Numbered from the stretch's first letter, positions 13,940-64,000 are shown. The stretch is DNA of 64,000 bases from Parcubacteria group bacterium 21-54-25 (GCA_002255585.1 NCBJ01000004.1:6415-70414); one strand, 5' to 3'. The notes: a model not told the origin generated them from the letters alone. Program-made: numbers and translations.

Positions 13940-14029
13940 TGGCGGAGACGGTGGGATTCGAACCCACGAGCGCTTTTATACGCTGGCACGTTAGCAGTGT
14001 GCTGGTTTCAACCACTCACCCACGTCTCC
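13940..14029 (-). tRNA. tRNA-Ser (anticodon GCT), type II with long variable arm, CCA encoded
   Basis: Revcomp is GGAGACG-TG-GGT-GAGTGGTTGAA-ACC-A-GCACA-CTGCTAA-CGTGC-[CAGCGTATAAAAGCGCT]-CGTGG-GTTCGAATC-CCAC-CGTCTCC-G-CCA. T-loop GTTCGAATC and G73 are present. Confidence 0.85.
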
Positions 14030-14037
14030 GTACGGCA

Positions 14038-15048
14038 CTATCCTATCGTACTTTTGTATCTTCTCAAATGTTTCGGGTTATGACTCCCGATTACTGAAAA
14101 ATAACGCTTCACATCCGCGATACGATCCAGACGCACGTCATCGTGCGAACCGAGCCGTGGATGAAATCCGTGCGCACACAGTGCATCGCATATAGACCGG
14201 CGCAGTGGTTCCGAAGCGCTCGTGAACGAGAGTTTCTTATATGTGTAAGTTTTGCCTTTAACACGATACCGGTGCGTGAAAACACTTCCGTCAGTATCAA
14301 AGAGTCCGCGTAGACACGCGCTCGAGAATGCCTCGTTTTTCTTTACCCACGGCGGCATATCAAATCGCTGCTTGATTTTATTTCCTATCGGCAGACCTAG
14401 CCCGTGCAGATAATCGACCAAGTGCTTCCTTGAAACGACGATGTTGCACACCGACTTCTTCGGCGTGTGATATGTGCTTGGCGCAATTTCAAAAAGACTC
14501 TCGATGAGCGATTCGACAAAAGAAGTGTATTCGCGATCATCGATGTGGTGAAGCGTGACGGCAACCTGGTATGTGCTCATGCCGCCGTCACCCATCATAA
14601 TGCCGATGAACTCTGCAAGCATGGCGCTCCTTGCTGGTTTGTGGATGATTTTTGGTGCAAGGATCGAATGTTGCTTATGCTTCCCTACCTTGTTCCACCA
14701 CGCGCGCCACCGTGCACTTCGACATGCCTCATCGTGCGGGATGCATCCGTATTTTTGTATCGTTGCGGCAGCGCCCGTCTTACCAGCCCGCGCGGTGTGC
14801 GCATACGCATCGCGAACACGCATACGCGCGGGCACGGAAACACCGGTTTTTGCAGAGAGCGCCTGCACAGCAAAAAGCGGCATTGAAAATTTCTCCCGCC
14901 GCCAGTCTCGAACGGTACGTTCTGAGCACTGGCACAGGTGCGCCATGTCTGCAACCGTCAGTCTATCGCTGATGTGTTTGAAAAACGCTTCTTGTACACC
15001 TTTCTGGAACACGACTCTCTTAAATAAACGATTCCGCCATGCCTCCAT
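14038..15048 (-). CDS. HTH domain fused to a double-motif LAGLIDADG homing-endonuclease-like protein
   Basis: Two LAGLIDADG-type motifs (FIGIMMGDGGMS and LRGLFDTDGSVF) about 100 aa apart. The N-terminal ~100 aa are HTH-like (LTVADMAHLCQCSERTVRDWRREK). Start set to the ATG at 15048 (MEAWRNRL...); the ORF track extends to 15141. Abuts tRNA-Ser with a 9-nt gap. Confidence 0.7.
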   Translation of the reverse strand: MEAWRNRLFKRVVFQKGVQEAFFKHISDRLTVADMAHLCQCSERTVRDWRREKFSMPLFAVQALSAKTGVSVPARMRVRDAYAHTARAGKTGAAATIQKYGCIPHDEACRSARWRAWWNKVGKHKQHSILAPKIIHKPARSAMLAEFIGIMMGDGGMSTYQVAVTLHHIDDREYTSFVESLIESLFEIAPSTYHTPKKSVCNIVVSRKHLVDYLHGLGLPIGNKIKQRFDMPPWVKKNEAFSSACLRGLFDTDGSVFTHRYRVKGKTYTYKKLSFTSASEPLRRSICDALCAHGFHPRLGSHDDVRLDRIADVKRYFSVIGSHNPKHLRRYKSTIG

Positions 15049-15091
15049 TTTATCACGACCACATTCGAATCGCGTGCGCGACCGCTGGCCT

Positions 15092-15313
15092 CTAGAGCCC
15101 AAGTCTCGACGCGAGTTTGAAGCCGACCCAAATGCCGACAAAACCGCCCACCGCAGTGAGTAGCACCGAGCTCATGGAGAAAAACATATTGCCGCCCCAG
15201 AGGCCCGGCGTCATGCTGCCAAGCGTGGAGCCAATGAAAAGTCCAGCCCAAATAAATTTCTTGCGCGTAAACATTAGTAATAAGTATGCCATATAAAACA
15301 CGCAAACCGACAA
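15092..15313 (-). CDS. Small GlsB/YeaQ/YmgE-family-like membrane protein
   Basis: 73 aa. Gly-rich double-TM pattern (IWAGLFIGSTLGSMTPGLWGGNMFFSMSSVLLTAVGGFVGIWVGF) resembling transglycosylase-associated/YeaQ proteins. The larger overlapping ORF 14958..15407 is judged spurious. Confidence 0.45.
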   Translation of the reverse strand: MSVCVFYMAYLLLMFTRKKFIWAGLFIGSTLGSMTPGLWGGNMFFSMSSVLLTAVGGFVGIWVGFKLASRLGL

Positions 15314-17222: not shown

Positions 17223-17243
17223 TTGCGCGCGTATACTGTCCCC

Positions 17244-19409
17244 ATGAACGCCGACGACCTGCTCATCCAGCATTTCCCGCGGTTGCGCGCGGACCAGAAA
17301 ATCGCGCTAAAGAAGCTTGGTATCTTGAGCGTGCGCGACCTGCTCTATCACTTCCCGGCTCGCTATGAAAACGCGGGGCCAACGGGCACTATTGCGAGCG
17401 CCGCCGCCGGTGCAGACGTCACACTCTATGGCACCATTAGAAAGCCTGCCGCAAGGAAGGCGTGGAAGAGCCGACGACCCATCGCCGAGGCGTGGCTCGA
17501 GGACGCCTCTGGTCGCGTGAAAGTCATGTGGTTTTCGCAGCCCTACATTGCTAAGAGTTTAGCTGATGGCATGGTGGTCAAAGCAACAGGGCGCATGGCG
17601 GGCGCCGCTGAAAAGCCGTACCTCGCCAACCCTGACATTGAGCGCACGCCGGTCTCGCCCGAAGACGTGCACGACACACTCTTTGCCGACGCGACAGAAT
17701 CTGGTGACCAGACACTCTACCCGGTGTATTCAGAAAGTAAAGGTATCTCCTCACTTTGGCTCTATCATGCGGTAAAAAAATGTATTGCAAGTGGTGTGCA
17801 CGAGCGCATGGAGGACGCAGTACCGCCAGAACTTCTTGAGCGATACAACCTCCCTACACTTGCCACCGCGCTCGTGTGGATGCACCTACCGCGCACACGC
17901 GGGAACAGCGAGGCGGCACGCAAGCGTTTCGCCTTTGAAGAGGTATTCACCATTCAACTCATGATGGCGCGCCGGCGTGCCAAGGCGGCGCGTGACAATG
18001 CCCTTTCGGTCACGGTCAATCGCGAGGCACTCACCGACTTTGTAAGTTCATTTCCATTTCCACCAACCGATGCGCAGCAAAAAGCAATCAACACTATTGC
18101 CAACGACTTTGAGCACCCGCACCCGATGATGCGGCTCCTCGAAGGCGATGTGGGGAGCGGTAAGACCGCGGTCGCCGCAGCGACGGCATACCTTGTCGCT
18201 ACTTCGCGCCCACCAGGGAGAATCGCTGGCACGCTCCAAGTGGCGTACCTCTGCCCTACGGAGATCCTCGCCAAACAGCACTTCGAGACGTTCGTCTCGT
18301 TCTTTAAGGACCACCCGATCCAGATCGGCCTCATTACCGGCAGCGAGTGCCGCAAGTTCCCGTCAAAAATCACGCGCGAAAAGTCCACACATATTTCACG
18401 TTCGCAGTTTCAAAAGTGGGTCGCAAATGGTGAGATTCCTATCGTCATCGGCACGCACGCGCTCGTGCAGAAATCACTCAATTTCAAAACACTCGCGTAC
18501 GCAATCATCGACGAGCAGCACCGTTTCGGAAAGGTGCACCGCCAAGAGCTCGCACACAAAGACGGCCTCGCCCCACATCTCCTTTCCATGACCGCGACAC
18601 CCATCCCACGCACGCTCGCGCTCACCATCTATGGTGATCTTGACCTCACACTCCTCGACCAGATGCCGCTCGGCCGAAAGCCGATTATCACCGAGGTGCT
18701 CGGTCCCGAAAAACGCGAGCGAGCATATGGGCGCGCACGAGAGGAGCTTGCTGCTGGACGCCAAGCATACGTCATCTGCCCGCGCATCGATGAACCAGAC
18801 CCAACAAAAGAGCTTGCCCTCCAAGCCAAATCGGTCAAAGCAGAAGCCGCACGGCTAAAAAAAGAAGTTTTTGTCGAAGCGAGCATCGGCATGCTCCACA
18901 GCAAGATGAAGCCGATAGAAAAAGAAGAGGCGATGCGGAAATTTTCTACTGGCGAGACCCAGATACTCGTGGCCACGTCGATGGTCGAGGTTGGTGTGAA
19001 CGTACCAAACGCCACCGTGATTTTAATAGAAGGTGCGGAGCGCTTTGGCTTAGCACAACTCCACCAGTTGCGTGGACGCGTGATTCGCTCCACGCATCAG
19101 GCGTACTGTTTTGCGCTCCCTGAATCGTACGGACAGGCGACCAAAGACCGTCTGACTGCACTCACAAAAGCAAAGAACGGATTCGAACTCGCGGAGTACG
19201 ATTTGTCACTGCGCGGCGCGGGCGAACTCTATGGCAAGCGTCAGTGGGGTATTTCAGATGTGGCGATGGAGGCGCTCCGGAATGTGAAGCTCGTCGAAGC
19301 AGCGCGCACGGAAGCGGCAAGACTCATACAAAAAGATCCTGATCTCGCCGCCCACCGCGCGCTAGCCGAGCTCGCGCGCACTCGGCAAGCCGAGCTGCAT
19401 GGGGAGTAG
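17244..19409 (+). CDS. recG: ATP-dependent DNA helicase RecG
   Basis: 721 aa from the ATG at 17244 (MNADDLLIQHFPRLRADQKIALKKLGILSVRDLLYHFPARYE). Wedge/OB domain followed by a DEAD/DEAH helicase core (GDVGSGKT, DEQHRFG). Confidence 0.85.
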   Translation: MNADDLLIQHFPRLRADQKIALKKLGILSVRDLLYHFPARYENAGPTGTIASAAAGADVTLYGTIRKPAARKAWKSRRPIAEAWLEDASGRVKVMWFSQPYIAKSLADGMVVKATGRMAGAAEKPYLANPDIERTPVSPEDVHDTLFADATESGDQTLYPVYSESKGISSLWLYHAVKKCIASGVHERMEDAVPPELLERYNLPTLATALVWMHLPRTRGNSEAARKRFAFEEVFTIQLMMARRRAKAARDNALSVTVNREALTDFVSSFPFPPTDAQQKAINTIANDFEHPHPMMRLLEGDVGSGKTAVAAATAYLVATSRPPGRIAGTLQVAYLCPTEILAKQHFETFVSFFKDHPIQIGLITGSECRKFPSKITREKSTHISRSQFQKWVANGEIPIVIGTHALVQKSLNFKTLAYAIIDEQHRFGKVHRQELAHKDGLAPHLLSMTATPIPRTLALTIYGDLDLTLLDQMPLGRKPIITEVLGPEKRERAYGRAREELAAGRQAYVICPRIDEPDPTKELALQAKSVKAEAARLKKEVFVEASIGMLHSKMKPIEKEEAMRKFSTGETQILVATSMVEVGVNVPNATVILIEGAERFGLAQLHQLRGRVIRSTHQAYCFALPESYGQATKDRLTALTKAKNGFELAEYDLSLRGAGELYGKRQWGISDVAMEALRNVKLVEAARTEAARLIQKDPDLAAHRALAELARTRQAELHGE

Positions 19410-19424
19410 CAGGGCGAGTCGTTA

Positions 19425-19934
19425 TTAGCCGCACACCCCGCGTTCAGCGTACACAACTTGTTTGGCGTTTTGCCAGACAGTATACAAAAGAAAAATGATA
19501 ATGAGCACGTAGAGCGGTATTTCATAGGTTGCGAGAAGTCCTTGTAAAAAACCGCTTATCCCAAACGCTGCGGGTAGCACGCCTGCAAACACCGCGGCAA
19601 TGCTGGGCAATAAAGGTGAGCAACACATAAGAGGTAGGAGAATTCCTCCAAGAGCGCCTCCCACCACGCCGCGGGTACGAGCGTGCTGCTTTTTCTGCAC
19701 AGCATAGAATGCGTAGACGGTTGAGAGTGTAAGGGGAAAAGAAAATAATATGGCAAATAGTATGATGAGCGGCGTAATGAAATGTAATGAAACGAGTCCG
19801 ATGCTACCGCCCGTGTAACGCGCTGGAAGAATAAATACATACAGCGTAAAGAAAATGGCAAATAGAAGCGCGGCTGCCCCCCGGTAGCGGCGATGCGTAA
19901 ATACAATGCGGTTTGCGTCCAGAAGAAACGTCAT
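19425..19934 (-). CDS. Small polytopic membrane protein with intramembrane vicinal Cys-Cys (MerT/MerF-like putative Hg(II) transporter)
   Basis: 169 aa, about 4 TM. LLPLMCCSPLLPS places a CC(x)P motif inside a helix, as in MerT (ACCLGP) and MerF. C-terminal GVCG. Last gene of the arsR-merA-trx cluster. The function is inferred from context. Confidence 0.4.
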   Translation of the reverse strand: MTFLLDANRIVFTHRRYRGAAALLFAIFFTLYVFILPARYTGGSIGLVSLHFITPLIILFAILFSFPLTLSTVYAFYAVQKKQHARTRGVVGGALGGILLPLMCCSPLLPSIAAVFAGVLPAAFGISGFLQGLLATYEIPLYVLIIIFLLYTVWQNAKQVVYAERGVCG

Positions 19935-19940
19935 ACGAGA

Positions 19941-20498
19941 CTATGAGTTTGCAAAAGCTCTAATGGTAGCAGTGGTCGCTGCGGGTGAACCACTTATTGC
20001 TCGCACCACACCCTGTGCGTCAATCAGATAGTAAATATCTGCATAGTGATCGGGGTTATATATAGATGACGTCGTGCTGGCTGTAACGCGACCCCATACC
20101 CACTGTGGGTTGGTAAGCGTGGCAGGGGCGCTTGTTTGTATGAAAGAGTTAATGCTCGGGCCAGGGTATCCGTCGTTGTGGTACGTCTCGACGGGAATGA
20201 TGGTGAGATTGCCGAGCGTGCTTTCGTTTTGCGCGAGTACGCGCGCGCCTTCAGAACAGCTTGAACACCACGTAGATATGAACCAAAACAGCACCTTCTT
20301 CCCCTTGAAGCTGGAGAGTTTTACTGTGGTGCCTTGAAGATTTATAAAAGAAGCCGCCGGAGCTGGCGCATTGAGCGCCACGTGTCCCTGCGCAGTTGGT
20401 GAAGTTGATGGCGCAGACGACTGATGGCGCGCCGCAAACCACACGACTCCGCCGATGACAATAGCGATACTCACAAAGCCGACGACTCTGTTTTTCAT
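19941..20498 (-). CDS. Thioredoxin-fold thiol-disulfide oxidoreductase (TlpA/ResA-like), membrane-anchored
   Basis: 185 aa. N-terminal TM anchor, then a thioredoxin fold with the WCSSC (CxxC) active site. Confidence 0.7.
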   Translation of the reverse strand: MKNRVVGFVSIAIVIGGVVWFAARHQSSAPSTSPTAQGHVALNAPAPAASFINLQGTTVKLSSFKGKKVLFWFISTWCSSCSEGARVLAQNESTLGNLTIIPVETYHNDGYPGPSINSFIQTSAPATLTNPQWVWGRVTASTTSSIYNPDHYADIYYLIDAQGVVRAISGSPAATTATIRAFANS

Positions 20499-20501
20499 AT
20501 C

Positions 20502-21905
20502 TTAGATACAGCAGCTAAGCTGTGAAATATCCTTTGTAAACGAAAGCGCGGCGTATTTTATTGCTTCCGAAAGCGTGGGAAATACTGGTTCCATAGCCAG
20601 TACGTCGTCAATGGTATTTTTATTTTTAATAAGCGGAACAGCGGCAGCGATAAGATCAGCGGCGTCTGGCGCGAGAATGTGCACACCGACGATGACGCCC
20701 GTTTTTGGATCAACGCCCATTTTTATAAGTCCTTCTGTTCTACGAATGATGCCAGCCTTGGGTATCTGCGTAAAGGGCACCGTGCGACACGCACACACGC
20801 CCGCCTCTTTCATTTGCTCGTCTTCGGTAACGCCCACACTCGCGTACCCAGGATCAGTGAAAATAGCGTAGGGTACGGTACGGTAGTCAATGCTGTTGTG
20901 CTTTCCCTGCACAATGTTTTCAATCGCGAGCGTCCCCTCGTGTCCGGCCGTTGTTTCTAATCGCTTCGGTAAGCTAGTCACGTCTCCCACCGCATAGATA
21001 AAAGGCACAGTTGTCTGAAACGTATTACTCACCACAACCGCACCTCTCTCATTCACCGTTACGCCAGAAATATCGAGGCGTAAATCTTTGGTATTGGGTG
21101 TTTTACCAGCAGCAAGAAGAATCTCGTCTGTAGTAATTTCTTCGATATGGCCTTCGGTGCTATACGTCAACACTTTTCTTCCGTTTTCTATTCTGGCGCG
21201 CTGCACCAAAACGTTTGTCTTAATAGTAATGCCTTCCTTCTCTAAAACGGAAACCAACCGGTCTATAAGCTCGCTTTCGCCATGCGGAAAGATACGGGTA
21301 CCGCGTTGCAGTATGGTTACCTTTGTGCCAAACCGTGCGTACACTTGCGCAAGCTCAAGCGCTACTGGCCCGCCGCCAATACAAACCATTTCTTTTGGAA
21401 GCTTTTTTAGCGCTAATGCTTCAATGTGGGTGAGGTACCCCACCTCATGGATCCCGTCTATCGGCGGCACCGTTGCTTTTGAACCGGTAGCGATGATGAA
21501 ATTGTCAGCGGAAAGCACTTCGCCATCAACCGTAATTTCTTTCTGTGCGCTAAAAACCGCCCCTCCTTCCTTGTAGGTTACGTTGGGGAGGCGTGCGAGC
21601 ACTTTTTCATATTTTTCATCTCGAAATGTTTGTACTGTCGCGAGTTCGTCTTGTATTATTTTTTCAAAGTCTATCTTTTCTACAGTCGTGTGGATGCCAG
21701 GAACACCATGCGCGCGTACCATGTGCACAACGTGCGCAGCATGCACGAGCACCTTGGAGGGCACGCAACCGACATTGACGCACGTTCCGCCGGCGGGAAG
21801 GTCGTAGTTACTCATGGCAGTAGCGAGCCCAAGCTCGTTTGCTTTAATCGCTGCGGCAAACGCACCGGCACCGCCGCCGATTATGATGAGATCATATTTT
21901 TTCAT
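20502..21905 (-). CDS. merA: Mercuric reductase MerA (core enzyme, no NmerA/HMA domain)
   Basis: 467 aa. FAD-binding GGGAGA; redox-active GGTCVNVGCVPSK identical to the MerA signature; C-terminal vicinal cysteines ...KDISQLSCCI matching MerA ...KDVKQLSCCAG. Confidence 0.85.
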   Translation of the reverse strand: MKKYDLIIIGGGAGAFAAAIKANELGLATAMSNYDLPAGGTCVNVGCVPSKVLVHAAHVVHMVRAHGVPGIHTTVEKIDFEKIIQDELATVQTFRDEKYEKVLARLPNVTYKEGGAVFSAQKEITVDGEVLSADNFIIATGSKATVPPIDGIHEVGYLTHIEALALKKLPKEMVCIGGGPVALELAQVYARFGTKVTILQRGTRIFPHGESELIDRLVSVLEKEGITIKTNVLVQRARIENGRKVLTYSTEGHIEEITTDEILLAAGKTPNTKDLRLDISGVTVNERGAVVVSNTFQTTVPFIYAVGDVTSLPKRLETTAGHEGTLAIENIVQGKHNSIDYRTVPYAIFTDPGYASVGVTEDEQMKEAGVCACRTVPFTQIPKAGIIRRTEGLIKMGVDPKTGVIVGVHILAPDAADLIAAAVPLIKNKNTIDDVLAMEPVFPTLSEAIKYAALSFTKDISQLSCCI

Positions 21906-22225
21906 AGAGACGATTGCATTCTTTTACGTAATAAATCTGAAAAAGGTGAGCTCCCGAAACGGTAGTACACATGTCGGAAGTCTCGTCGGTCCTCCACCAA
22001 CCCAGCCTGTTTCAGTTTGGTAAGAGTGTGTGATACCGCAGAAACCGAAACACCGACGGCCGAGGCTATTTCCCCGACAGAGAGTTCACTATGTCGGCAT
22101 AATAGATAGCATATTTTCAAACGTGTCGGGTCTCCCACCACGCGAAACTCCTCCGCGCATTTCTGCACCTCTTTTTCGTTTTGTAGTTCTTTCTTGAGGC
22201 TGCGCTTTCTCATTTGCATGTACAT
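21902..22225 (-). CDS. ArsR/SmtB-family metalloregulatory transcriptional repressor
   Basis: 107 aa. wHTH region (DPTRLKICYLLCRHSELSVGEIASAVGVSVSAVSHTLTKLKQAGLV) has the ArsR-type Cys in the HTH vicinity. Overlaps the merA start by 4 nt. Confidence 0.8.
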   Translation of the reverse strand: MYMQMRKRSLKKELQNEKEVQKCAEEFRVVGDPTRLKICYLLCRHSELSVGEIASAVGVSVSAVSHTLTKLKQAGLVEDRRDFRHVYYRFGSSPFSDLLRKRMQSSL

Positions 22226-22326
22226 TCAAATGTACCCGGCCCCGCCGATAGGCGCAACATCTTTTCCACAGCTTCCTTGCGCTCCACGTAGCTCGCTCGC
22301 CATGCCGGGAGGTCATGGGCCGCCAG

Positions 22327-22351
22327 GTGTATCAAACGGAGTTTGATACAC
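22327..22351. promoter_or_regulatory. 11-3-11 perfect inverted repeat (GTGTATCAAAC-GGA-GTTTGATACAC) upstream of the arsR-merA operon
   Basis: Perfect palindrome about 100 nt upstream of the ArsR-family gene start and 33 nt downstream of the tRNA-Ile 3' end. Candidate autoregulatory operator or tRNA terminator hairpin. Confidence 0.4.
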
Positions 22352-22383
22352 CACCGATCGATTGGAGTATATGGTCGTTTTTG

Positions 22384-22457
22384 TGGGCGTACCAGGACTC
22401 GAACCTGGAACCGCTGAGGTATAAGCTCAGTGCTCTAACCAATTGAGCTATACGCCC
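22384..22457 (-). tRNA. tRNA-Ile (anticodon UAU), 74 nt, CCA not encoded
   Basis: Revcomp is GGGCGTA-TA-GCTC-AATTGGTTA-GAGC-A-CTGAG-CTTATAC-CTCAG-CGGTT-CCAGG-TTCGAGT-CCTGG-TACGCCC-A. Anticodon loop CUUAUAC gives anticodon UAU. Confidence 0.8.
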
Positions 22458-22481
22458 GTATCCTATCTCGCTCCGCTCGTG

Positions 22482-22510
22482 GTAAGCTCAGTGCTCTAAC
22501 CAATTGAGCT
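22482..22510 (-). pseudogene. 29-nt exact duplicate of the 5' portion (positions about 8-35) of tRNA-Ile(UAU), embedded in a hairpin
   Basis: Minus-strand TAGCTCAATTGGTTAGAGCACTGAGCTTA is identical to the adjacent tRNA. It is flanked by complementary GCTCGT/ACGAGC arms (22471-22520). No T-arm or acceptor 3' strand follows, so it is not a functional tRNA. Confidence 0.6.
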
Positions 22511-22547
22511 ACGAGCGAACATACCGCTTAACGCGGATGTCCCAATA

Positions 22548-22889
22548 CTAAACCCGCATAAAGCGAACGCCAAATAGGGTATTGACGAGCGCGAGGAGAA
22601 GTGCGAAAAGAAACGCGGTGCCAAAACCAGAAACCGAGAAGCCCGGCACAAGCGCCGCGGCACCCAGTATGATGAGTGCGTTTATGACGAGTGAGAAAAG
22701 CCCGAGCGTGAGAATCGTGAACGGTAGGGTGAGCACCGTAATGATTGGCCGAATAAATAGGTTGATGAGCGCAAGCACCGCAGCGAGCACTAGCGCGCCC
22801 ACGAGCGTCACCTGGACGCCGGGCACGAGGTACGCCGCAATGCCAATCGCAAGTGCTGCAACGAGCCAGTGGAGAAGCGTATGAATCAT
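22548..22889 (-). CDS. Phage_holin_4_2 (PF04020)-like 4-TM membrane protein
   Basis: 113 aa from the ATG at 22889 (MIHTLLHWLVAALAIGIAAYLVPGV...LTLPFTILTLGLFSLVINAL...), matching the conserved PF04020 pattern. The upstream ORF extension is discarded. Confidence 0.6.
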   Translation of the reverse strand: MIHTLLHWLVAALAIGIAAYLVPGVQVTLVGALVLAAVLALINLFIRPIITVLTLPFTILTLGLFSLVINALIILGAAALVPGFSVSGFGTAFLFALLLALVNTLFGVRFMRV

Positions 22890-40610: not shown

Positions 40611-41210
40611 ATGAATCATCTGGCGACAGAGCAGCCGCTCAAAAATGCATATTTCGCAATGCGCCATGGTACGAGTGTGGCAAATGAGGAGGGCGTCATT
40701 GTAAGCGATCCGACCAAAGGTGTCGCTGGCTATGGTCTTTCCGAGAAAGGCCGCAAAGAAGTGCGTGCGGCTGCGCAACGTGCAAAAGAAACAGGGTTGC
40801 TCGATGCACATACGATTGTCATCTCGTCCGACTTTACTCGCGCGCGCGAGACTGCCGAAATGCTTGTCGATACACTTGATCTCGACATGGTTACAACGAC
40901 ACCGAAGCTGCGAGAACGTTTTTTCGGTGCGTGGGATGGTACGCATAACGACAACTACCAGAAGGTGTGGGCTGACGATGCGCACAATGCTACCCATACC
41001 GCCAACGGCGTCGAGAGCGTCGCAGCAGTGCTCGACCGCGCAACGAAACTAATCGCGGAACTTGAGCAGAATTACGCTGGGAAACCTATCGTACTCGTAT
41101 CGCATGGCGATACGCTCCAAATACTTCAGACCGCGTTTGCAGATGTGTCCCCTGAAACACACCGTTCACTGACACCCCTCCATACCGCCGAGATTCGCAA
41201 ACTGAATTGA
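40611..41210 (+). CDS. Histidine phosphatase family protein (phosphoglycerate mutase-like)
   Basis: 199 aa from the ATG at 40611. Catalytic RHG motif (YFAMRHGTSVANE) plus downstream His (LVSHGDTL). Confidence 0.75.
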   Translation: MNHLATEQPLKNAYFAMRHGTSVANEEGVIVSDPTKGVAGYGLSEKGRKEVRAAAQRAKETGLLDAHTIVISSDFTRARETAEMLVDTLDLDMVTTTPKLRERFFGAWDGTHNDNYQKVWADDAHNATHTANGVESVAAVLDRATKLIAELEQNYAGKPIVLVSHGDTLQILQTAFADVSPETHRSLTPLHTAEIRKLN

Positions 41211-41220
41211 CGCAGAAACA

Positions 41221-41257
41221 AAAACCATGCGATTGCTTAGAGCAATCGCATGGTTTT
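41221..41257 (+). terminator. Rho-independent terminator (perfect 13-bp stem) after the phosphatase gene, bidirectional
   Basis: aaaaaccatgcgattgc-ttag-agcaatcgcatggtttttg. An A-run precedes and a T-run follows the perfect stem. Confidence 0.8.
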
Positions 41258-41263
41258 TGTTTA

Positions 41264-41465
41264 CTGGGCGGGCCGCCGAGAATCGAACTCGGGTTATACC
41301 CCTTCGAGCCTCGGCAGTCCCCCGGACTACCGGTCGAGCCGAAAGTCGGGCCGCCGAGAATCGAACTCGGGTTATACGCACCCGAAGCGTACGTAATACC
41401 ACTATACCACGGCCCGACTTTCGGCTCGACCCCAAGGCGCACGTACTACCACTATACCACGGCCC
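41264..41465 (-). tRNA. Split tRNA-Pro(UGG)-like gene with a 128-nt insertion at position 37/38 (possibly intron-containing or a pseudogene)
   Basis: The 5' part (41430..41465: TGGGCCG-TG-GTA-TAGTGGTAG-TAC-G-TGCGC-CTTGGG) and the 3' part (41264..41301: G-GGGTA-TAAC-CCGAG-TTCGATT-CTCGG-CGGCCCG-C-CCA) together make one full-length tRNA. Anticodon UGG, CCA encoded. It has a U1-G72 wobble and one G-G mismatch in the anticodon stem. The two parts are separated by 41302..41429, which contains a complete tRNA-Pro(CGG). Confidence 0.45.
41345..41415 (-). tRNA. tRNA-Pro (anticodon CGG), 71 nt, CCA not encoded; nested inside the split tRNA-Pro(UGG)-like gene
   Basis: CGGGCCG-TG-GTA-TAGTGGTAT-TAC-G-TACGC-TTCGGGT-GCGTA-TAAC-CCGAG-TTCGATT-CTCGG-CGGCCCG-A. 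All stems are Watson-Crick, with C1-G72, G37 and the T-loop TTCGATT. It is flanked by a perfect 15-nt inverted repeat (GGTCGAGCCGAAAGT / ACTTTCGGCTCGACC) that extends the acceptor helix. Confidence 0.8.
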
Positions 41466-41592
41466 AAATGCGAGTAGCGTACCATACCGAGCTGCTCGTG
41501 TATGGTGCGCCCGCCAACGAGGAGACGTATCCCACAGGGTGTGGATACAGCCCGGTTTTGGAACACACACAGCGGCAGCAGTGCGTATCCCG

Positions 41593-41666
41593 GTGGGTAG
41601 TACAGGATTCGAACCTGTGACCTCACGCGTGTGAAGCGTGCGCTCTAACCAGCTGAGCTAACCACC
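41593..41666 (-). tRNA. tRNA-Val (anticodon CAC), 74 nt, CCA not encoded
   Basis: GGGTGGT-TA-GCTC-AGCTGGTTA-GAGC-G-CACGC-TTCACAC-GCGTG-AGGTC-ACAGG-TTCGAAT-CCTGT-ACTACCC-A. Confidence 0.85.
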
Positions 41667-41712
41667 CGAATGACCGGAGCATAGCAGAAAAAACACCAAA
41701 ACAAAATGTGCT

Positions 41713-41786
41713 GTGGACCTTACCGGATTCGAACCGGTGACCTCCGCATTGCAAATGCGGCGCTCTAACCAACTGAGCTAAAGGCC
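41713..41786 (-). tRNA. tRNA-Ala (anticodon UGC), 74 nt, CCA not encoded
   Basis: GGGCCTT-TA-GCTC-AGTTGGTTA-GAGC-G-CCGCA-TTTGCAA-TGCGG-AGGTC-ACCGG-TTCGAAT-CCGGT-AAGGTCC-A. The G3-U70 Ala identity pair is present. Confidence 0.85.
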
Positions 41787-41822
41787 CGCAAGAAGGAGCA
41801 TACCCGGTTTTAGCTTTTCTGG

Positions 41823-42152
41823 CTACCCAAGCGCATCAATTTTTGCTGCGAGAATGAAATCGTTCAGCGAGAGTCCCTGCACCGCGTGGGTAGAAAGCGT
41901 AACGCCGACCCTACCCCACGACACTGAAAGGTCTGGATGGTGCCCTTCTTTCTCGGCGAGCGCAGCAATCTGATTGGTAAGTGCAATGGCGCTCATAAAA
42001 TCCTTACATGAGTACTCTTTCGCGATGGACTTTGTGTCTAACGCAAGCGTCCAACCGGAGAGATCGCGCATGAGCTTTTCCGCCTCGGCGCGTGTAAGAG
42101 GAGCGCCACCGACTTCACAGGGAACACATTGTTGTTTATTCAAGTCAGTCAT
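41823..42152 (-). CDS. Pterin-4a-carbinolamine dehydratase (PCD/DCoH)
   Basis: 110 aa from the ATG at 42152. Signature EGHHPDLSVSWGRV ([E]xHHP motif). Confidence 0.75.
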   Translation of the reverse strand: MTDLNKQQCVPCEVGGAPLTRAEAEKLMRDLSGWTLALDTKSIAKEYSCKDFMSAIALTNQIAALAEKEGHHPDLSVSWGRVGVTLSTHAVQGLSLNDFILAAKIDALG

Positions 42153-62111: not shown

Positions 62112-62521
62112 GGGGGTGACCGGCTTTGACGGTCTGTACCTTGAGAATGCGCGACGCGGTGCACGCTCACTTACCACCTAAAACTAGTGAGCACCTAAAC
62201 GTGCCAAGAAATCTCTTGCACGCGCAGTGTCGCCATACTTCGGTATGAACGACTTTGCGTTCGCGGCAGTGACGGCTCGAGCGTAAGCTCGCCTCGCTCT
62301 CGCGACGTCTCCCTACCTTGCGTTTGCAGGGGGTAGTCGAGGCGGAATGTACTGCATACTCGACGTGCGCGCGCCCACGCGTACTGTCTAAATTTTGGGA
62401 TCCGACAGGAGTGATTTTGTTTCAGTTCCTCGCACCCTGTCCTAGCTTCAACTGAAACTACGCGTCGTAGAAGCACCTCATGGTCCGGATTCGGACGGGA
62501 GTTCGATTCTCCCCACCTCCA
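62112..62521 (+). ncRNA. ssrA: tmRNA (ssrA)
   Basis: 5' end GGGGGUGACCGGCUUUGACGG. 3' end GGACGGGAGUUCGAUUCUCCCCACCUCCA, i.e. T-arm plus acceptor with the G3-U70 Ala identity pair. CCA not encoded. A candidate tag reading frame ends at TAA 62284-62286 (...NDFAFAAVTARA); the resume codon is uncertain. Confidence 0.8.
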
Positions 62522-64000
62522 CATCTTGTGAATTCTTGGTAGCAAACTGCTCAAAAAGGCCGATAAATGGCGACTTTAGCGCGGTTTCAAATCCAAACTT
62601 TGGATGGAATGCCAATCGTTCCGCAAAGAGTAGTTTTAGAACTACTCTTTTTGCGTTTATGTCTCGCTTTTCCCAGATAACTAGCGGGTTTTCTAGGAAG
62701 TTGAGTACGACCTCTAGTGCGGTTTCAAAACTCACGGATGAGACGCCCAGCCCTTTCATCCGCTCTTGCAAGAGATCGCCTTCGCTTCGGTATTTCGCGA
62801 TCTGTTCCTCGTATGCGCTGATCACCCTTTCGTCTACCGCCTTCACGACACGTCCAGCGAGAACATCCACCTGACGCCGCGTTTCCTTCAGCTTCGTCTC
62901 CAAGGATCTTTGTTGCTGCTCAAGAGAACCCACCTTGTGTTCCCACAATTCCAGAACTACGGCTTTAGCGAGACGAATGGCCCCGGGCTTCGGGTAGATG
63001 GACTGGAGGAGTTTTACAAATTCTGCATCGACAAAGTCTCCGCTCACGCTTTTATTGAATCGAACGCAGGATGGGCTCTTGCAGCGATAGAAACGGTACA
63101 TCTTTGATCTGCCTCTCGACCAGCTTGCGGTGAGTGCGCCTTGGCAGAATGGGCACAGGAGGAATCCGCGAAGCGCGAAGTCGAGCGAATCACTTTTCCG
63201 CACAGCCACCCTGCACTTCCCATCCAGTTTTCCCTGCACTTTTTGGAATGTCTCGAGAGAAATGATCGCTTCATGTTGCCCTTTTCTTCTCGAAACTTCC
63301 CACTCCTCACGCTCGACGTATCCCGCGTACACAACTCGTCGAAGAAGACGTCTAACGCCTTCTTGGTAAATCGGTCCGTTGCTGTAGTCTGTAGCACGCA
63401 AGAATTTAACCACGTCCGCCTGCGACAAAAACTTGCCAGAGGCAAATCCTTCAAACACTTCTCTAATGAGGCTGGCCTGCGGTTCATGGGGTTGAAGTAT
63501 CTTCCCATGCGCCGGATCCTTGACCTGCTTGTATCCGGGCGGCGGATAGTGCGGCCAGTACCCTTTCTCTAGGCGAGCTTTCATTTTCTGAATTACCTGG
63601 CGTCTGTTGTTCTTGCGATGGTATTGATTTTGCAACGCCACCATTCCCTCGAACATCTCTCCTTCCGGCGAATCGTCGAAGTTGAAATTCAAACAGAGTG
63701 GTTTAATTCCTCTAGTCTCGAAGGCCTGTCTTAATTTGAAATGAAAAATAACGTCCCTAGCAAACCGGCTCAAATCGTCAAAAATAACCACGTAGTTTCT
63801 ATGGGGATGATTATCTGCATGAGCAAGTAGCCTTTGCATAGCAGGCCTCAGCATAAAATCGCCGCCGCCGGTGAAACTATCTCTAAAGACTTCCTCTACC
63901 TCGTAGCCGTTGGATCTAGCGAACTCTCGGCATCGGTGTTCTTGGCTGTCGAGTCCGTGCCCTTTGACCTGACCCCCAAATTTCAGACCACTCTCTAGAC
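62478..64000 (-). CDS. Large serine recombinase (resolvase/integrase), N-terminus beyond window end
   Basis: The reading frame stays open to position 64000. Upstream in-frame translation gives ...GQVKGHGLDSQEHRCREFARSNGYEVEEVFRDSFTGGGDFMLRPAMQRLL...VVIFDDLSRFARD (resolvase catalytic domain). It is followed by the recombinase domain, a zinc ribbon (CPFCQG...CKSPSC) and a coiled-coil. Its 3' end overlaps the tmRNA 3' end by 44 nt. Confidence 0.8.
   Translation of the reverse strand, partial: LESGLKFGGQVKGHGLDSQEHRCREFARSNGYEVEEVFRDSFTGGGDFMLRPAMQRLLAHADNHPHRNYVVIFDDLSRFARDVIFHFKLRQAFETRGIKPLCLNFNFDDSPEGEMFEGMVALQNQYHRKNNRRQVIQKMKARLEKGYWPHYPPPGYKQVKDPAHGKILQPHEPQASLIREVFEGFASGKFLSQADVVKFLRATDYSNGPIYQEGVRRLLRRVVYAGYVEREEWEVSRRKGQHEAIISLETFQKVQGKLDGKCRVAVRKSDSLDFALRGFLLCPFCQGALTASWSRGRSKMYRFYRCKSPSCVRFNKSVSGDFVDAEFVKLLQSIYPKPGAIRLAKAVVLELWEHKVGSLEQQQRSLETKLKETRRQVDVLAGRVVKAVDERVISAYEEQIAKYRSEGDLLQERMKGLGVSSVSFETALEVVLNFLENPLVIWEKRDINAKRVVLKLLFAERLAFHPKFGFETALKSPFIGLFEQFATKNSQDVEVGRIELPSESGP

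Follow-up and report, generated by a model that had tools for sequence, protein, structure and literature searches.

tRNA genes are classic sites for the integration of mobile DNA, with the crossover frequently falling in the anticodon loop, and, to our knowledge, the same loop harbors all known tRNA introns. Bacterial genomes also contain small non-autonomous elements with TA duplications and hairpin ends, such as the Correia elements of Neisseria and elements derived from IS630. An example of an anticodon-loop crossover during integration into a tRNA gene is mentioned in a preprint (bioRxiv 10.64898/2026.04.20.719267). Group I introns interrupt tRNA genes of bacteria (PMC3984707; bioRxiv 10.1101/2020.01.27.920355), and tRNAs of archaea can be interrupted, split or permuted (PMC4307357). 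tRNA-Ile genes with a UAU anticodon are rare in bacteria generally and are used by bacteria without tilS, for example Mycoplasma mobile (PMC3575796). The locus described here, from a 64-kb stretch of a Parcubacteria group genome (hereafter the window), touches on all of these systems: a complete tRNA-Ile(UAU) gene is preceded by an exact copy of 29 nt of itself. This copy, probably a relic, suggests that short inserts bearing a tRNA gene form a class of their own within tRNA anticodon loops; in the open-access literature searched, neither nested tRNA genes nor tRNA introns were described for these bacteria.

The tRNA-Ile(UAU) gene and the repeat upstream of it

The gene, read here as the working, inner (cassette-borne) copy, occupies positions 22383-22457 on the minus strand according to ARAGORN, which assigns it to isotype Ile with anticodon TAT, and the Rfam tRNA model matches 22384-22457 with 74.7 bits. 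Both calls agree with a preliminary description of the DNA, made from the sequence alone, which had named the gene tRNA-Ile with anticodon UAU. The 7-nt anticodon loop is CTTATAC, the cloverleaf is canonical, and no CCA is encoded. By eye, A73, C4-G69, U12-A23, and A37 are present, the 29-41 pair is G-C, and position 38 is C; the elements inspected are those described as isoleucine identity elements in E. coli.

The rarity of bacterial UAU-type tRNA-Ile, also pointed out in the preliminary description, holds in general (PMC3575796) but not at this locus: every related genome with a tRNA gene at the syntenic position, about 20 distinct loci in all, has the UAU type there, which is thus the norm for the group at this locus. 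AUA accounts for 18% of the isoleucine codons in the window (about 10 per 1000 codons), so that a dedicated decoder is needed. None of the 5 tRNAs in the 64-kb window has a CAT anticodon, and the TilS family is absent from the 25 listed of the 66 Pfam families matched by the 57 window ORFs.

The 29-nt repeat (TAGCTCAATTGGTTAGAGCACTGAGCTTA, minus strand) lies at 22422-22450, corresponding to tRNA positions 8-35, and again at 22483-22511, with the 2 copies 61 nt apart; the match is exact, as had been reported. The upstream copy does lie 5' of the gene and close to it, although not immediately so, since 25 nt separate the two. A scan of the whole window at up to 3 mismatches returned only these 2 copies (0 further ones expected from 100 shuffles), and neither a T arm nor a 3' half of an old tRNA-Ile was found anywhere in the 64 kb, in line with the missing T arm remarked on earlier. 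Along the minus strand, the end of a holin-like gene (stop codon 22548-22550) is followed by TCGCTCG, TAGCTCAATTGGTTAGAGCACTGAGCTTA, the leader CCACGAGCGGAGCGAGATAGGATAC, and the tRNA gene. The segment 22483-22518 (minus strand) can accordingly be divided into an acceptor strand (TCGCTCG), a D arm, the 5' strand of an anticodon stem, and CTTA. Given the repeat match, the same element in the same place in the relative L017, and the complete interrupted genes of L003 and L004, we consider it likely that the 29-nt copy and the 7 nt before it make up the 5' half of a former resident tRNA-Ile(UAU) gene that became interrupted. The 321 bases 22300-22620 recur exactly in 2 other public assemblies; the arrangement is thus identical in three and is not an assembly accident.

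The 25-nt leader (22458-22482, minus strand) aligns with its counterparts in L017, L011, L003, L002, and L004, and is homologous to the 5' cassette flank in the relatives, with the motif GAGCGAGA or GAGTGAG. The complementary arms that the preliminary description had seen around the fragment (plus strand, GCTCGT at 22475-22480 and ACGAGC at 22511-22516) are real and close the predicted fold of the leader, but they are not conserved, being unpaired in L017 and L003; they correspond, one each, to the old acceptor strand and to the beginning of the cassette leader. In the predicted fold of the 186-nt leader plus tRNA (z = -3.0), the old 5' half forms a closed hairpin. Farther upstream, a promoter-like element read from the sequence, TTGGCG-17 nt-TAGTAT (22545-22573, minus strand), overlaps the holin-like gene at its stop codon. 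It matches the consensus at 8 of 12 positions and was not called in a consensus promoter scan; the same 2 hexamers with the same spacing are found in L017, L025, L028, and L029. From this site, a single transcript probably runs through the old 5' half, the leader, and the tRNA. The old 5' half would today be part of a 5' leader of approximately 80 nt, which most likely folds back on itself and leaves upon cleavage by RNase P at the mature 5' end. We regard the 29-mer as a relic, itself inert, rather than as a working element.

Nested tRNA genes in relatives and in the window

Related loci were collected using one conserved 27-mer of the repeat, which was detected in 5 genomes (one genome per species scanned) and 11 contigs (metagenome scan), and from the neighbors of homologues of RecG and VTT, 2 proteins encoded next to the tRNA gene. 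The sample, designated by L numbers, is small: it comprises about 20 distinct tRNA-Ile(UAU) loci, 6 of which have tRNA halves. The closest relative with data, L017, the RecG of which is 86% identical to that of the window, shares the layout of the window: a promoter-like site over the holin stop codon, a 5' half, a 24-nt leader, a tRNA-Ile(UAU) gene, and no 3' half. Its 5' half (CCGCCCG-TAGCTCAGTTGGTAGAGCACTGAGCTTA) differs from the adjacent gene at 3 sites and is thus not a fresh local copy. L011/L025 contain a shorter remnant, CATAGCTTATA, followed by a leader much like that of the window (..GAAGTGAGATAGGATAG), and L002 has a decayed 5' half with one base lost and the 3' half gone; a candidate decayed 3' half in L002 scored 26 in alignment against 19.8 +/- 3.3 for shuffles, which is not significant. 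In all 6 loci (the window, L017, L011, L003, L002, and L004), the old half stops at CTTA, within the anticodon. The leader measures 24-26 nt in the window, L017, L003, and L002, and is 8 nt longer in L004; that of L011 fits 24-26 nt if its decayed remnant is read the same way. RecG identity is 75% between L003 and L002 and at most 58% between L004 and the others. No fragment was present in L006, L007, L009, L013, L014, L015, L028, or L029, the first 6 of which have a tRNA gene identical to the 74 nt of the window, whereas that of L029 matches at 73/74 positions and that of L028 is clearly unlike it.

No tRNA-Ile gene adjoins recG in L018-L024, and the synteny is thus not universal. The contigs of the close relatives L018 and L019 break within approximately 80 nt after recG, at the very place that the tRNA-Ile locus occupies in other genomes; repeats or strain variation there may be responsible. 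In L001-L005, L010, L016, and L042, the tRNA-Ile(UAU) gene adjoins ftsH (along with smpB or tmRNA). The position immediately upstream of ftsH is that of tilS in many other bacteria; the adjacency of ftsH and tRNA-Ile may be coincidental. The tmRNA of the window (62112-62522; Rfam, 77 bits) has a predicted tag, VPRNLLHAQCRHTSV, without the usual alanine-rich end, whereas the tags of the relatives L001 and L005 end in ..APAYA and ..AFAFA; the tag call in the window may be wrong or the tag unusual. The idea that the cassette occurs in 2 phylum-level groups was dropped: the "Saccharibacteria" labels of L002 and L003 are doubtful, and their closest source-named RecG proteins are labeled Parcubacteria or Paceibacterota.

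The architecture from which the fragment could have arisen is intact in 2 of the relatives. In both L003 and L004, a whole tRNA-Ile(UAU) gene with short flanks lies between the 5' and 3' halves of another tRNA gene. ARAGORN with intron search misses these outer genes, and the halves were therefore joined by hand before calling. Joined in this way, the halves of L003 are called as tRNA-Ile(tat) with perfect stems, and those of L004 as tRNA-Ile(tat) with one acceptor-stem and one T-stem mismatch. The L003 insert is 145 nt long, with TA at both junctions (CTTA/CCGGC...GCATA/TAC, slashes marking the insert ends). Its inner gene matches the tRNA of L005 at 72/74 positions and its own outer gene at only 58/74, and the T arm of the outer gene is shared with the relative L042. 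Locus L041, the RecG of which is 93% identical to that of L003, has an uninterrupted gene in the same neighborhood that equals the joined outer halves of L003 at 74/74 positions, and the tRNA-Ile(UAU) gene of L042 (RecG 88%) is uninterrupted as well. We conclude that a tRNA of foreign type, together with its flanks, entered the resident gene of L003 after the split of L003 and L041, a precise exit being less likely; this is, however, a single clean pair of filled and empty sites, which alone cannot separate insertion from precise loss. The perfection of the L003 outer gene follows from recency and need not mean function. Empty sites between distant carriers imply either several independent events or many precise losses.

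The cassette is approximately 145 nt long and consists of a leader of about 25 nt, a complete tRNA-Ile(UAU), and a trailer of about 45 nt. When the flanks were folded with the inner tRNA swapped for a tetraloop, long stems were obtained, with z-scores of -4.6 (L003), -2.5 (L002), -7.2 (L004), and -6.7 (the tRNA-Pro insert of the window, described below). A closing helix, P1, at the junctions pairs TACCGGC with GCCGGTA in L003, TACGGGC with GTCCGTA in L002, and TATAA with TTATA in L004, and covaries among the three, L002 and L003 differing by one double compensatory change. P1 is followed by a direct repeat present on both arms, GAGCGA in L003 and GAGTGAACGA in L002; in antiparallel orientation, G-A/A-G steps alternate with 2 Watson-Crick pairs, in agreement with the predicted fold. 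A second helix, P2, is an inverted repeat of 9-17 bp that extends the inner acceptor stem and differs in sequence in each copy, with the pairing always kept. A small hairpin lies just ahead of the 3' junction of the cassette. At the junctions, TA is duplicated in L003 and TATA in L004, and 9-14 extra nucleotides follow P1 at the right end. Rfam searches of L002, L003, L004, and positions 41100-41900 of the window for intron or ribozyme families, including the group I core, returned tRNA matches only, a bulge-helix-bulge motif was seen neither in the predicted folds nor by eye, and no recombinase, transposase, or ribozyme was found beside any cassette copy.

The second nested gene, at 41265-41466 of the window, is complete, and only its inner gene is reported by tRNA finders. 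All of its parts are on the minus strand. The outer 5' half (41430-41466), recognized by comparing all tRNAs with the DNA, ends in the loop CTTGGGG, in which the anticodon would be TGG, and the outer 3' half (41265-41301) is identical to the inner gene over 31/31 nt. Between them lies an insert (41302-41429; ARAGORN, Rfam, and folds) composed of the leader TCGAGCCGAAAGT, a complete tRNA-Pro(CGG) gene called by ARAGORN and Rfam (41345-41416), and a trailer. In the trailer, an exact complement of the 13-nt leader lengthens the acceptor stem; a hairpin (GGTAGTCC..GGACTGCC) and another GGCTCGA are also present. A separate fold gave a z-score of -5.4. The joined outer halves are called by ARAGORN as tRNA-Pro(tgg) of 74 nt, with a G-G mismatch in the anticodon stem; the insert junctions are a G run, without TA. 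A stem-loop with a T run approximately 10 nt past the outer 3' half resembles a terminator by eye, although the terminator scan did not call it. The outer gene fills the normal last slot of the Ala-Val-Pro tRNA cluster, before this terminator-like stem-loop, which marks it as the original resident. We propose a "tRNA-in-tRNA" class, in which a whole tRNA gene with paired flanks occupies the anticodon loop of another tRNA gene with the same amino acid specificity. The tRNA-Pro locus of the window, L003, and L004 display all of these features, whereas the tRNA-Ile locus of the window keeps the 5' half and the leader.

Viral contigs yielded 0 matches to a gapped pattern of half, leader, and tRNA, and none of 11 viral tRNA-Ile(UAU) genes was nested; a phage vector for the cassette was thus not found. 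Phage tRNA-Ile(UAU) genes in L037 (1456-1552) and L039 (918-1012) are 95-97 nt long, with a long extra arm separating the T arm from the anticodon stem. Elsewhere in the window, a free-standing ORF of 367 aa (14038-15141, minus strand) with a LAGLIDADG_3 match (E = 1.7e-6) and a weak helix-turn-helix match lies directly upstream of tRNA-Ser(GCT) (13940-14029) and may encode a homing-type nuclease outside any intron.

The mer cluster and the origin of the fragment

The RecG encoded in the window is 100% identical to a protein of Parcubacteria group bacterium 21-54-25. The gene order in the window is recG (17223-19409), a mer cluster, the tRNA-Ile gene, and then holin_4_2-like, VTT/DedA, MliC, and leuS genes. 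The 2.97 kb that separate recG from the tRNA 3' end (19410-22382, minus strand) are absent in some relatives. They encode an ArsR/SmtB-family regulator (21902-22225), a thioredoxin-like protein (19941-20498), a MerA of 467 aa (20502-21905; NCBIfam MerA equivalog, 496 bits with the cut-off at 454), and a 169-aa protein without a family match (19425-19934), all on the minus strand. A palindrome before the ArsR gene (22211-22232) is probably an operator. In L006, L011/L025, and L017, the mer cluster is absent and recG ends only about 30-50 nt from the tRNA gene; the cluster is therefore an insertion, as had been suspected in the preliminary description, which was also right about its lower GC content (0.50 at 20001-22000 versus about 0.54 for the window). 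AUA makes up 30% of isoleucine codons within 19410-22382 and 18% elsewhere. The 3' flank of the tRNA-Ile gene carries differing genes in L013, L014, L015, and L029, which identifies it as a turnover spot.

The preliminary description went on to suggest that the fragment could be an attachment-site remnant of the mer cluster, with the repeat bounding the cluster. Such integrase-mediated integration would agree with the status of the cluster as an insertion relative to L006, L011, and L017, with its lower GC content and higher AUA use, and with the standing of tRNA genes as classic integration sites in which the crossover often falls in the anticodon loop. Nevertheless, no direct repeat bounds 19410-22382 at either end, and none of the 4 cluster ORFs matched an integrase family, the 169-aa ORF matching nothing. 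The fragment lies 5' and the cluster 3' of the tRNA gene, so that the two are unrelated, and the repeat copies are just 61 nt apart. Furthermore, the duplicated part is a 5' half with a conserved leader rather than a 3'-terminal segment, and L017, which has the fragment without the mer cluster, contradicts the suggestion directly. We therefore give an attachment-site origin almost no credence. By contrast, the more general idea that recombination in the anticodon region left a piece of a tRNA gene behind is supported, and a decayed second tRNA, offered as the alternative, came closer to our conclusion. Classical att-type remnants, in contrast to the nested cassettes, are seen in L023 (3330-3349) and L024 (53-72), where 20 nt from the 3' end of tRNA-Ser(GCT) are repeated approximately 50 nt downstream of the gene; the genes beside this repeat in L023 encode a reverse transcriptase, an NYN nuclease, and an HTH protein.

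The fragment could instead have arisen by local partial tandem duplication of the tRNA 5' half, through slippage or unequal exchange, without any connection to the nested genes elsewhere. This would be the simplest route to a 5' half, a spacer, and a whole gene in that order, and the 29/29 identity to the adjacent gene at a spacing of 61 nt fits a recent local duplication, or gene conversion. However, the spacer should then equal the sequence upstream of the first copy, which it does not, and the acceptor strands differ (TCGCTCG in the old half, GGGCGTA in the gene). The same junction and a homologous spacer occur in L017, L003, L002, and L004, including complete nested cassettes, the L017 fragment differs from its gene at 3 sites, and the 27-mer is conserved in many lineages, so that the identity needs no recent copying. 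A duplication of this kind is in our view unlikely. A further rival explanation is that the 5' half is kept for a function in the precursor RNA, as a processing or folding element or as a decoy for a tRNA-binding protein or nuclease. In its favor are the predicted closed hairpin and the conservation of the half: the fragments of the window and L017 differ at 2 of about 31 nt, whereas the adjacent leader has diverged, a disparity that would not be predicted for a purely neutral relic. Yet the 6 loci with an identical tRNA (L006, L007, L009, L013, L014, and L015) and L029, with 1/74 positions different, do without the fragment, even though L007, L013, L014, L015, and L029 share the end of the upstream gene or the promoter. 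Most of the fragment is gone from L011, the closing arms are not conserved in L017, and no Rfam family was matched, all of which makes such a function improbable.

The inserts might also be true introns, with the outer tRNA rejoined at the RNA level, 2 tRNAs produced per nested gene, and the fragment in the window a leftover. Their position in the anticodon loop, the site of all tRNA introns of which we know, the ability of P1 to bring both junctions together, the perfect outer gene of L003, and the outer tRNA-Pro of the window, which reads TGG where the inner one reads CGG and so would not be redundant, are all as expected for introns. Set against this are the lack of a group I core and of any known self-cleaving ribozyme, and of a bulge-helix-bulge on inspection, as well as the decay of the outer genes, namely, 2 mismatches in L004, the loss of a base and of the 3' half in L002, and the G-G mismatch in tRNA-Pro. 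The tRNA-Ile loci of the window and L017 lack the 3' half altogether, and recency suffices to explain the perfection of L003. True introns are thus very improbable. In a related version, the inner tRNA would be cut from the outer precursor and the halves rejoined by an undescribed bacterial splicing activity, making the cassettes mobile tRNA-bearing introns; this, too, we judge quite improbable, but if it were true, the transcript of 41265-41466 would give both Pro-CGG and Pro-UGG.

The explanation that we favor, and regard as probable, is that the 29-nt copy is a relic of the insertion of a tRNA-in-tRNA cassette into an older tRNA-Ile(UAU) gene. The cassette would have entered the anticodon loop of the resident gene at the TA of the anticodon, splitting the old gene while supplying a working replacement. 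The inner gene would take over, transcribed from the resident promoter; the cassettes are all too short to hold one themselves. The old 5' half may owe its survival to its position, with the only promoter on one side and the only working gene on the other, whereas the old 3' half and the trailer would be free to decay; in the lineage of the window, both would have been lost later, with the mer genes now found at that turnover spot. The tRNA-Ile locus of the window would then stand late in a series of stages, and its tRNA-Pro locus early. This explanation draws on the anatomy of the locus, the homology of its leader, the intact nested relatives, the pair of filled and empty sites, and the second nested tRNA. 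The order of events in the lineage of the window and the co-transcription from the upstream promoter are inferred from these, and the cassettes would be mobile elements rather than one-off accidents. The short junction homologies (TA, TATA, G run), like the pairing of the ends, would fit a recombinase or transposase supplied in trans as well as a repair-type or RNA-mediated event. Several points weigh on the other side. The tRNA-Ile locus of the window is without a trailer and 3' half, and its nested origin therefore rests on homology with other genomes, in which the homology of the leader is that of a short motif. Finally, no other copies of the cassette flanks occur in the 64-kb window, and relatives have one copy per locus, unlike a typical family of repeat elements.

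Implications and comparison with known systems

If our explanation is correct, tiny cassettes repeatedly replace essential tRNA genes that these bacteria, with their small genomes, carry in single copy; the cell cannot lose such a cassette, which holds the only working copy. This would represent a new route for the horizontal spread of tRNA genes and would explain the strong differences in the acceptor and T stems of tRNA-Ile(UAU) between close relatives. For annotation, it means that tRNA finders report only the inner gene, whereas the outer halves are overlooked or taken for att sites. The stem with alternating G-A steps offers a defined target for finding the responsible enzyme.

With the AUA decoders of the Mycoplasma mobile type, the locus shares a tRNA-Ile gene with a UAU anticodon and a well-used AUA codon; unlike in those, it is in this clade the normal gene at a conserved locus next to recG, ftsH, or leuS rather than a peculiarity of a single species. 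The fragments left by phage and island integration at att sites are similar in that a partial tRNA lies by a complete gene, the breakpoint is in the anticodon loop, and the incoming DNA restores function. However, classical att elements carry only the tRNA segment between the crossover and one end, an integrase, and kilobases of cargo, and leave the fragment at the far end, whereas here approximately 145 nt without an integrase bring in a whole tRNA gene that is nested inside its target. Group I introns in bacterial tRNAs are likewise inserted into the anticodon loop and present or absent among close relatives, but our inserts have no catalytic core, are shorter than any of these introns, and have a tRNA as their core, and the decay of the outer genes makes splicing doubtful. 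Archaeal interrupted, split, and permuted tRNAs resemble the nested genes in the break at the anticodon loop and in the paired flanks that juxtapose the halves. Unlike those, the genes described here belong to a bacterium, show no bulge-helix-bulge, and are interrupted by a tRNA gene; we know of no splicing endonuclease of the archaeal type in these bacteria. The tRNA-Ile cassettes resemble the Correia and IS630-derived elements in form: they are about 100-150 nt long, their ends pair to form a long stem, and TA flanks them at either end. They differ from these elements in that each genome has one copy at one site, the cargo is an essential tRNA, the stem sequences vary although the pairing is conserved, and the tRNA-Pro copy is without TA.
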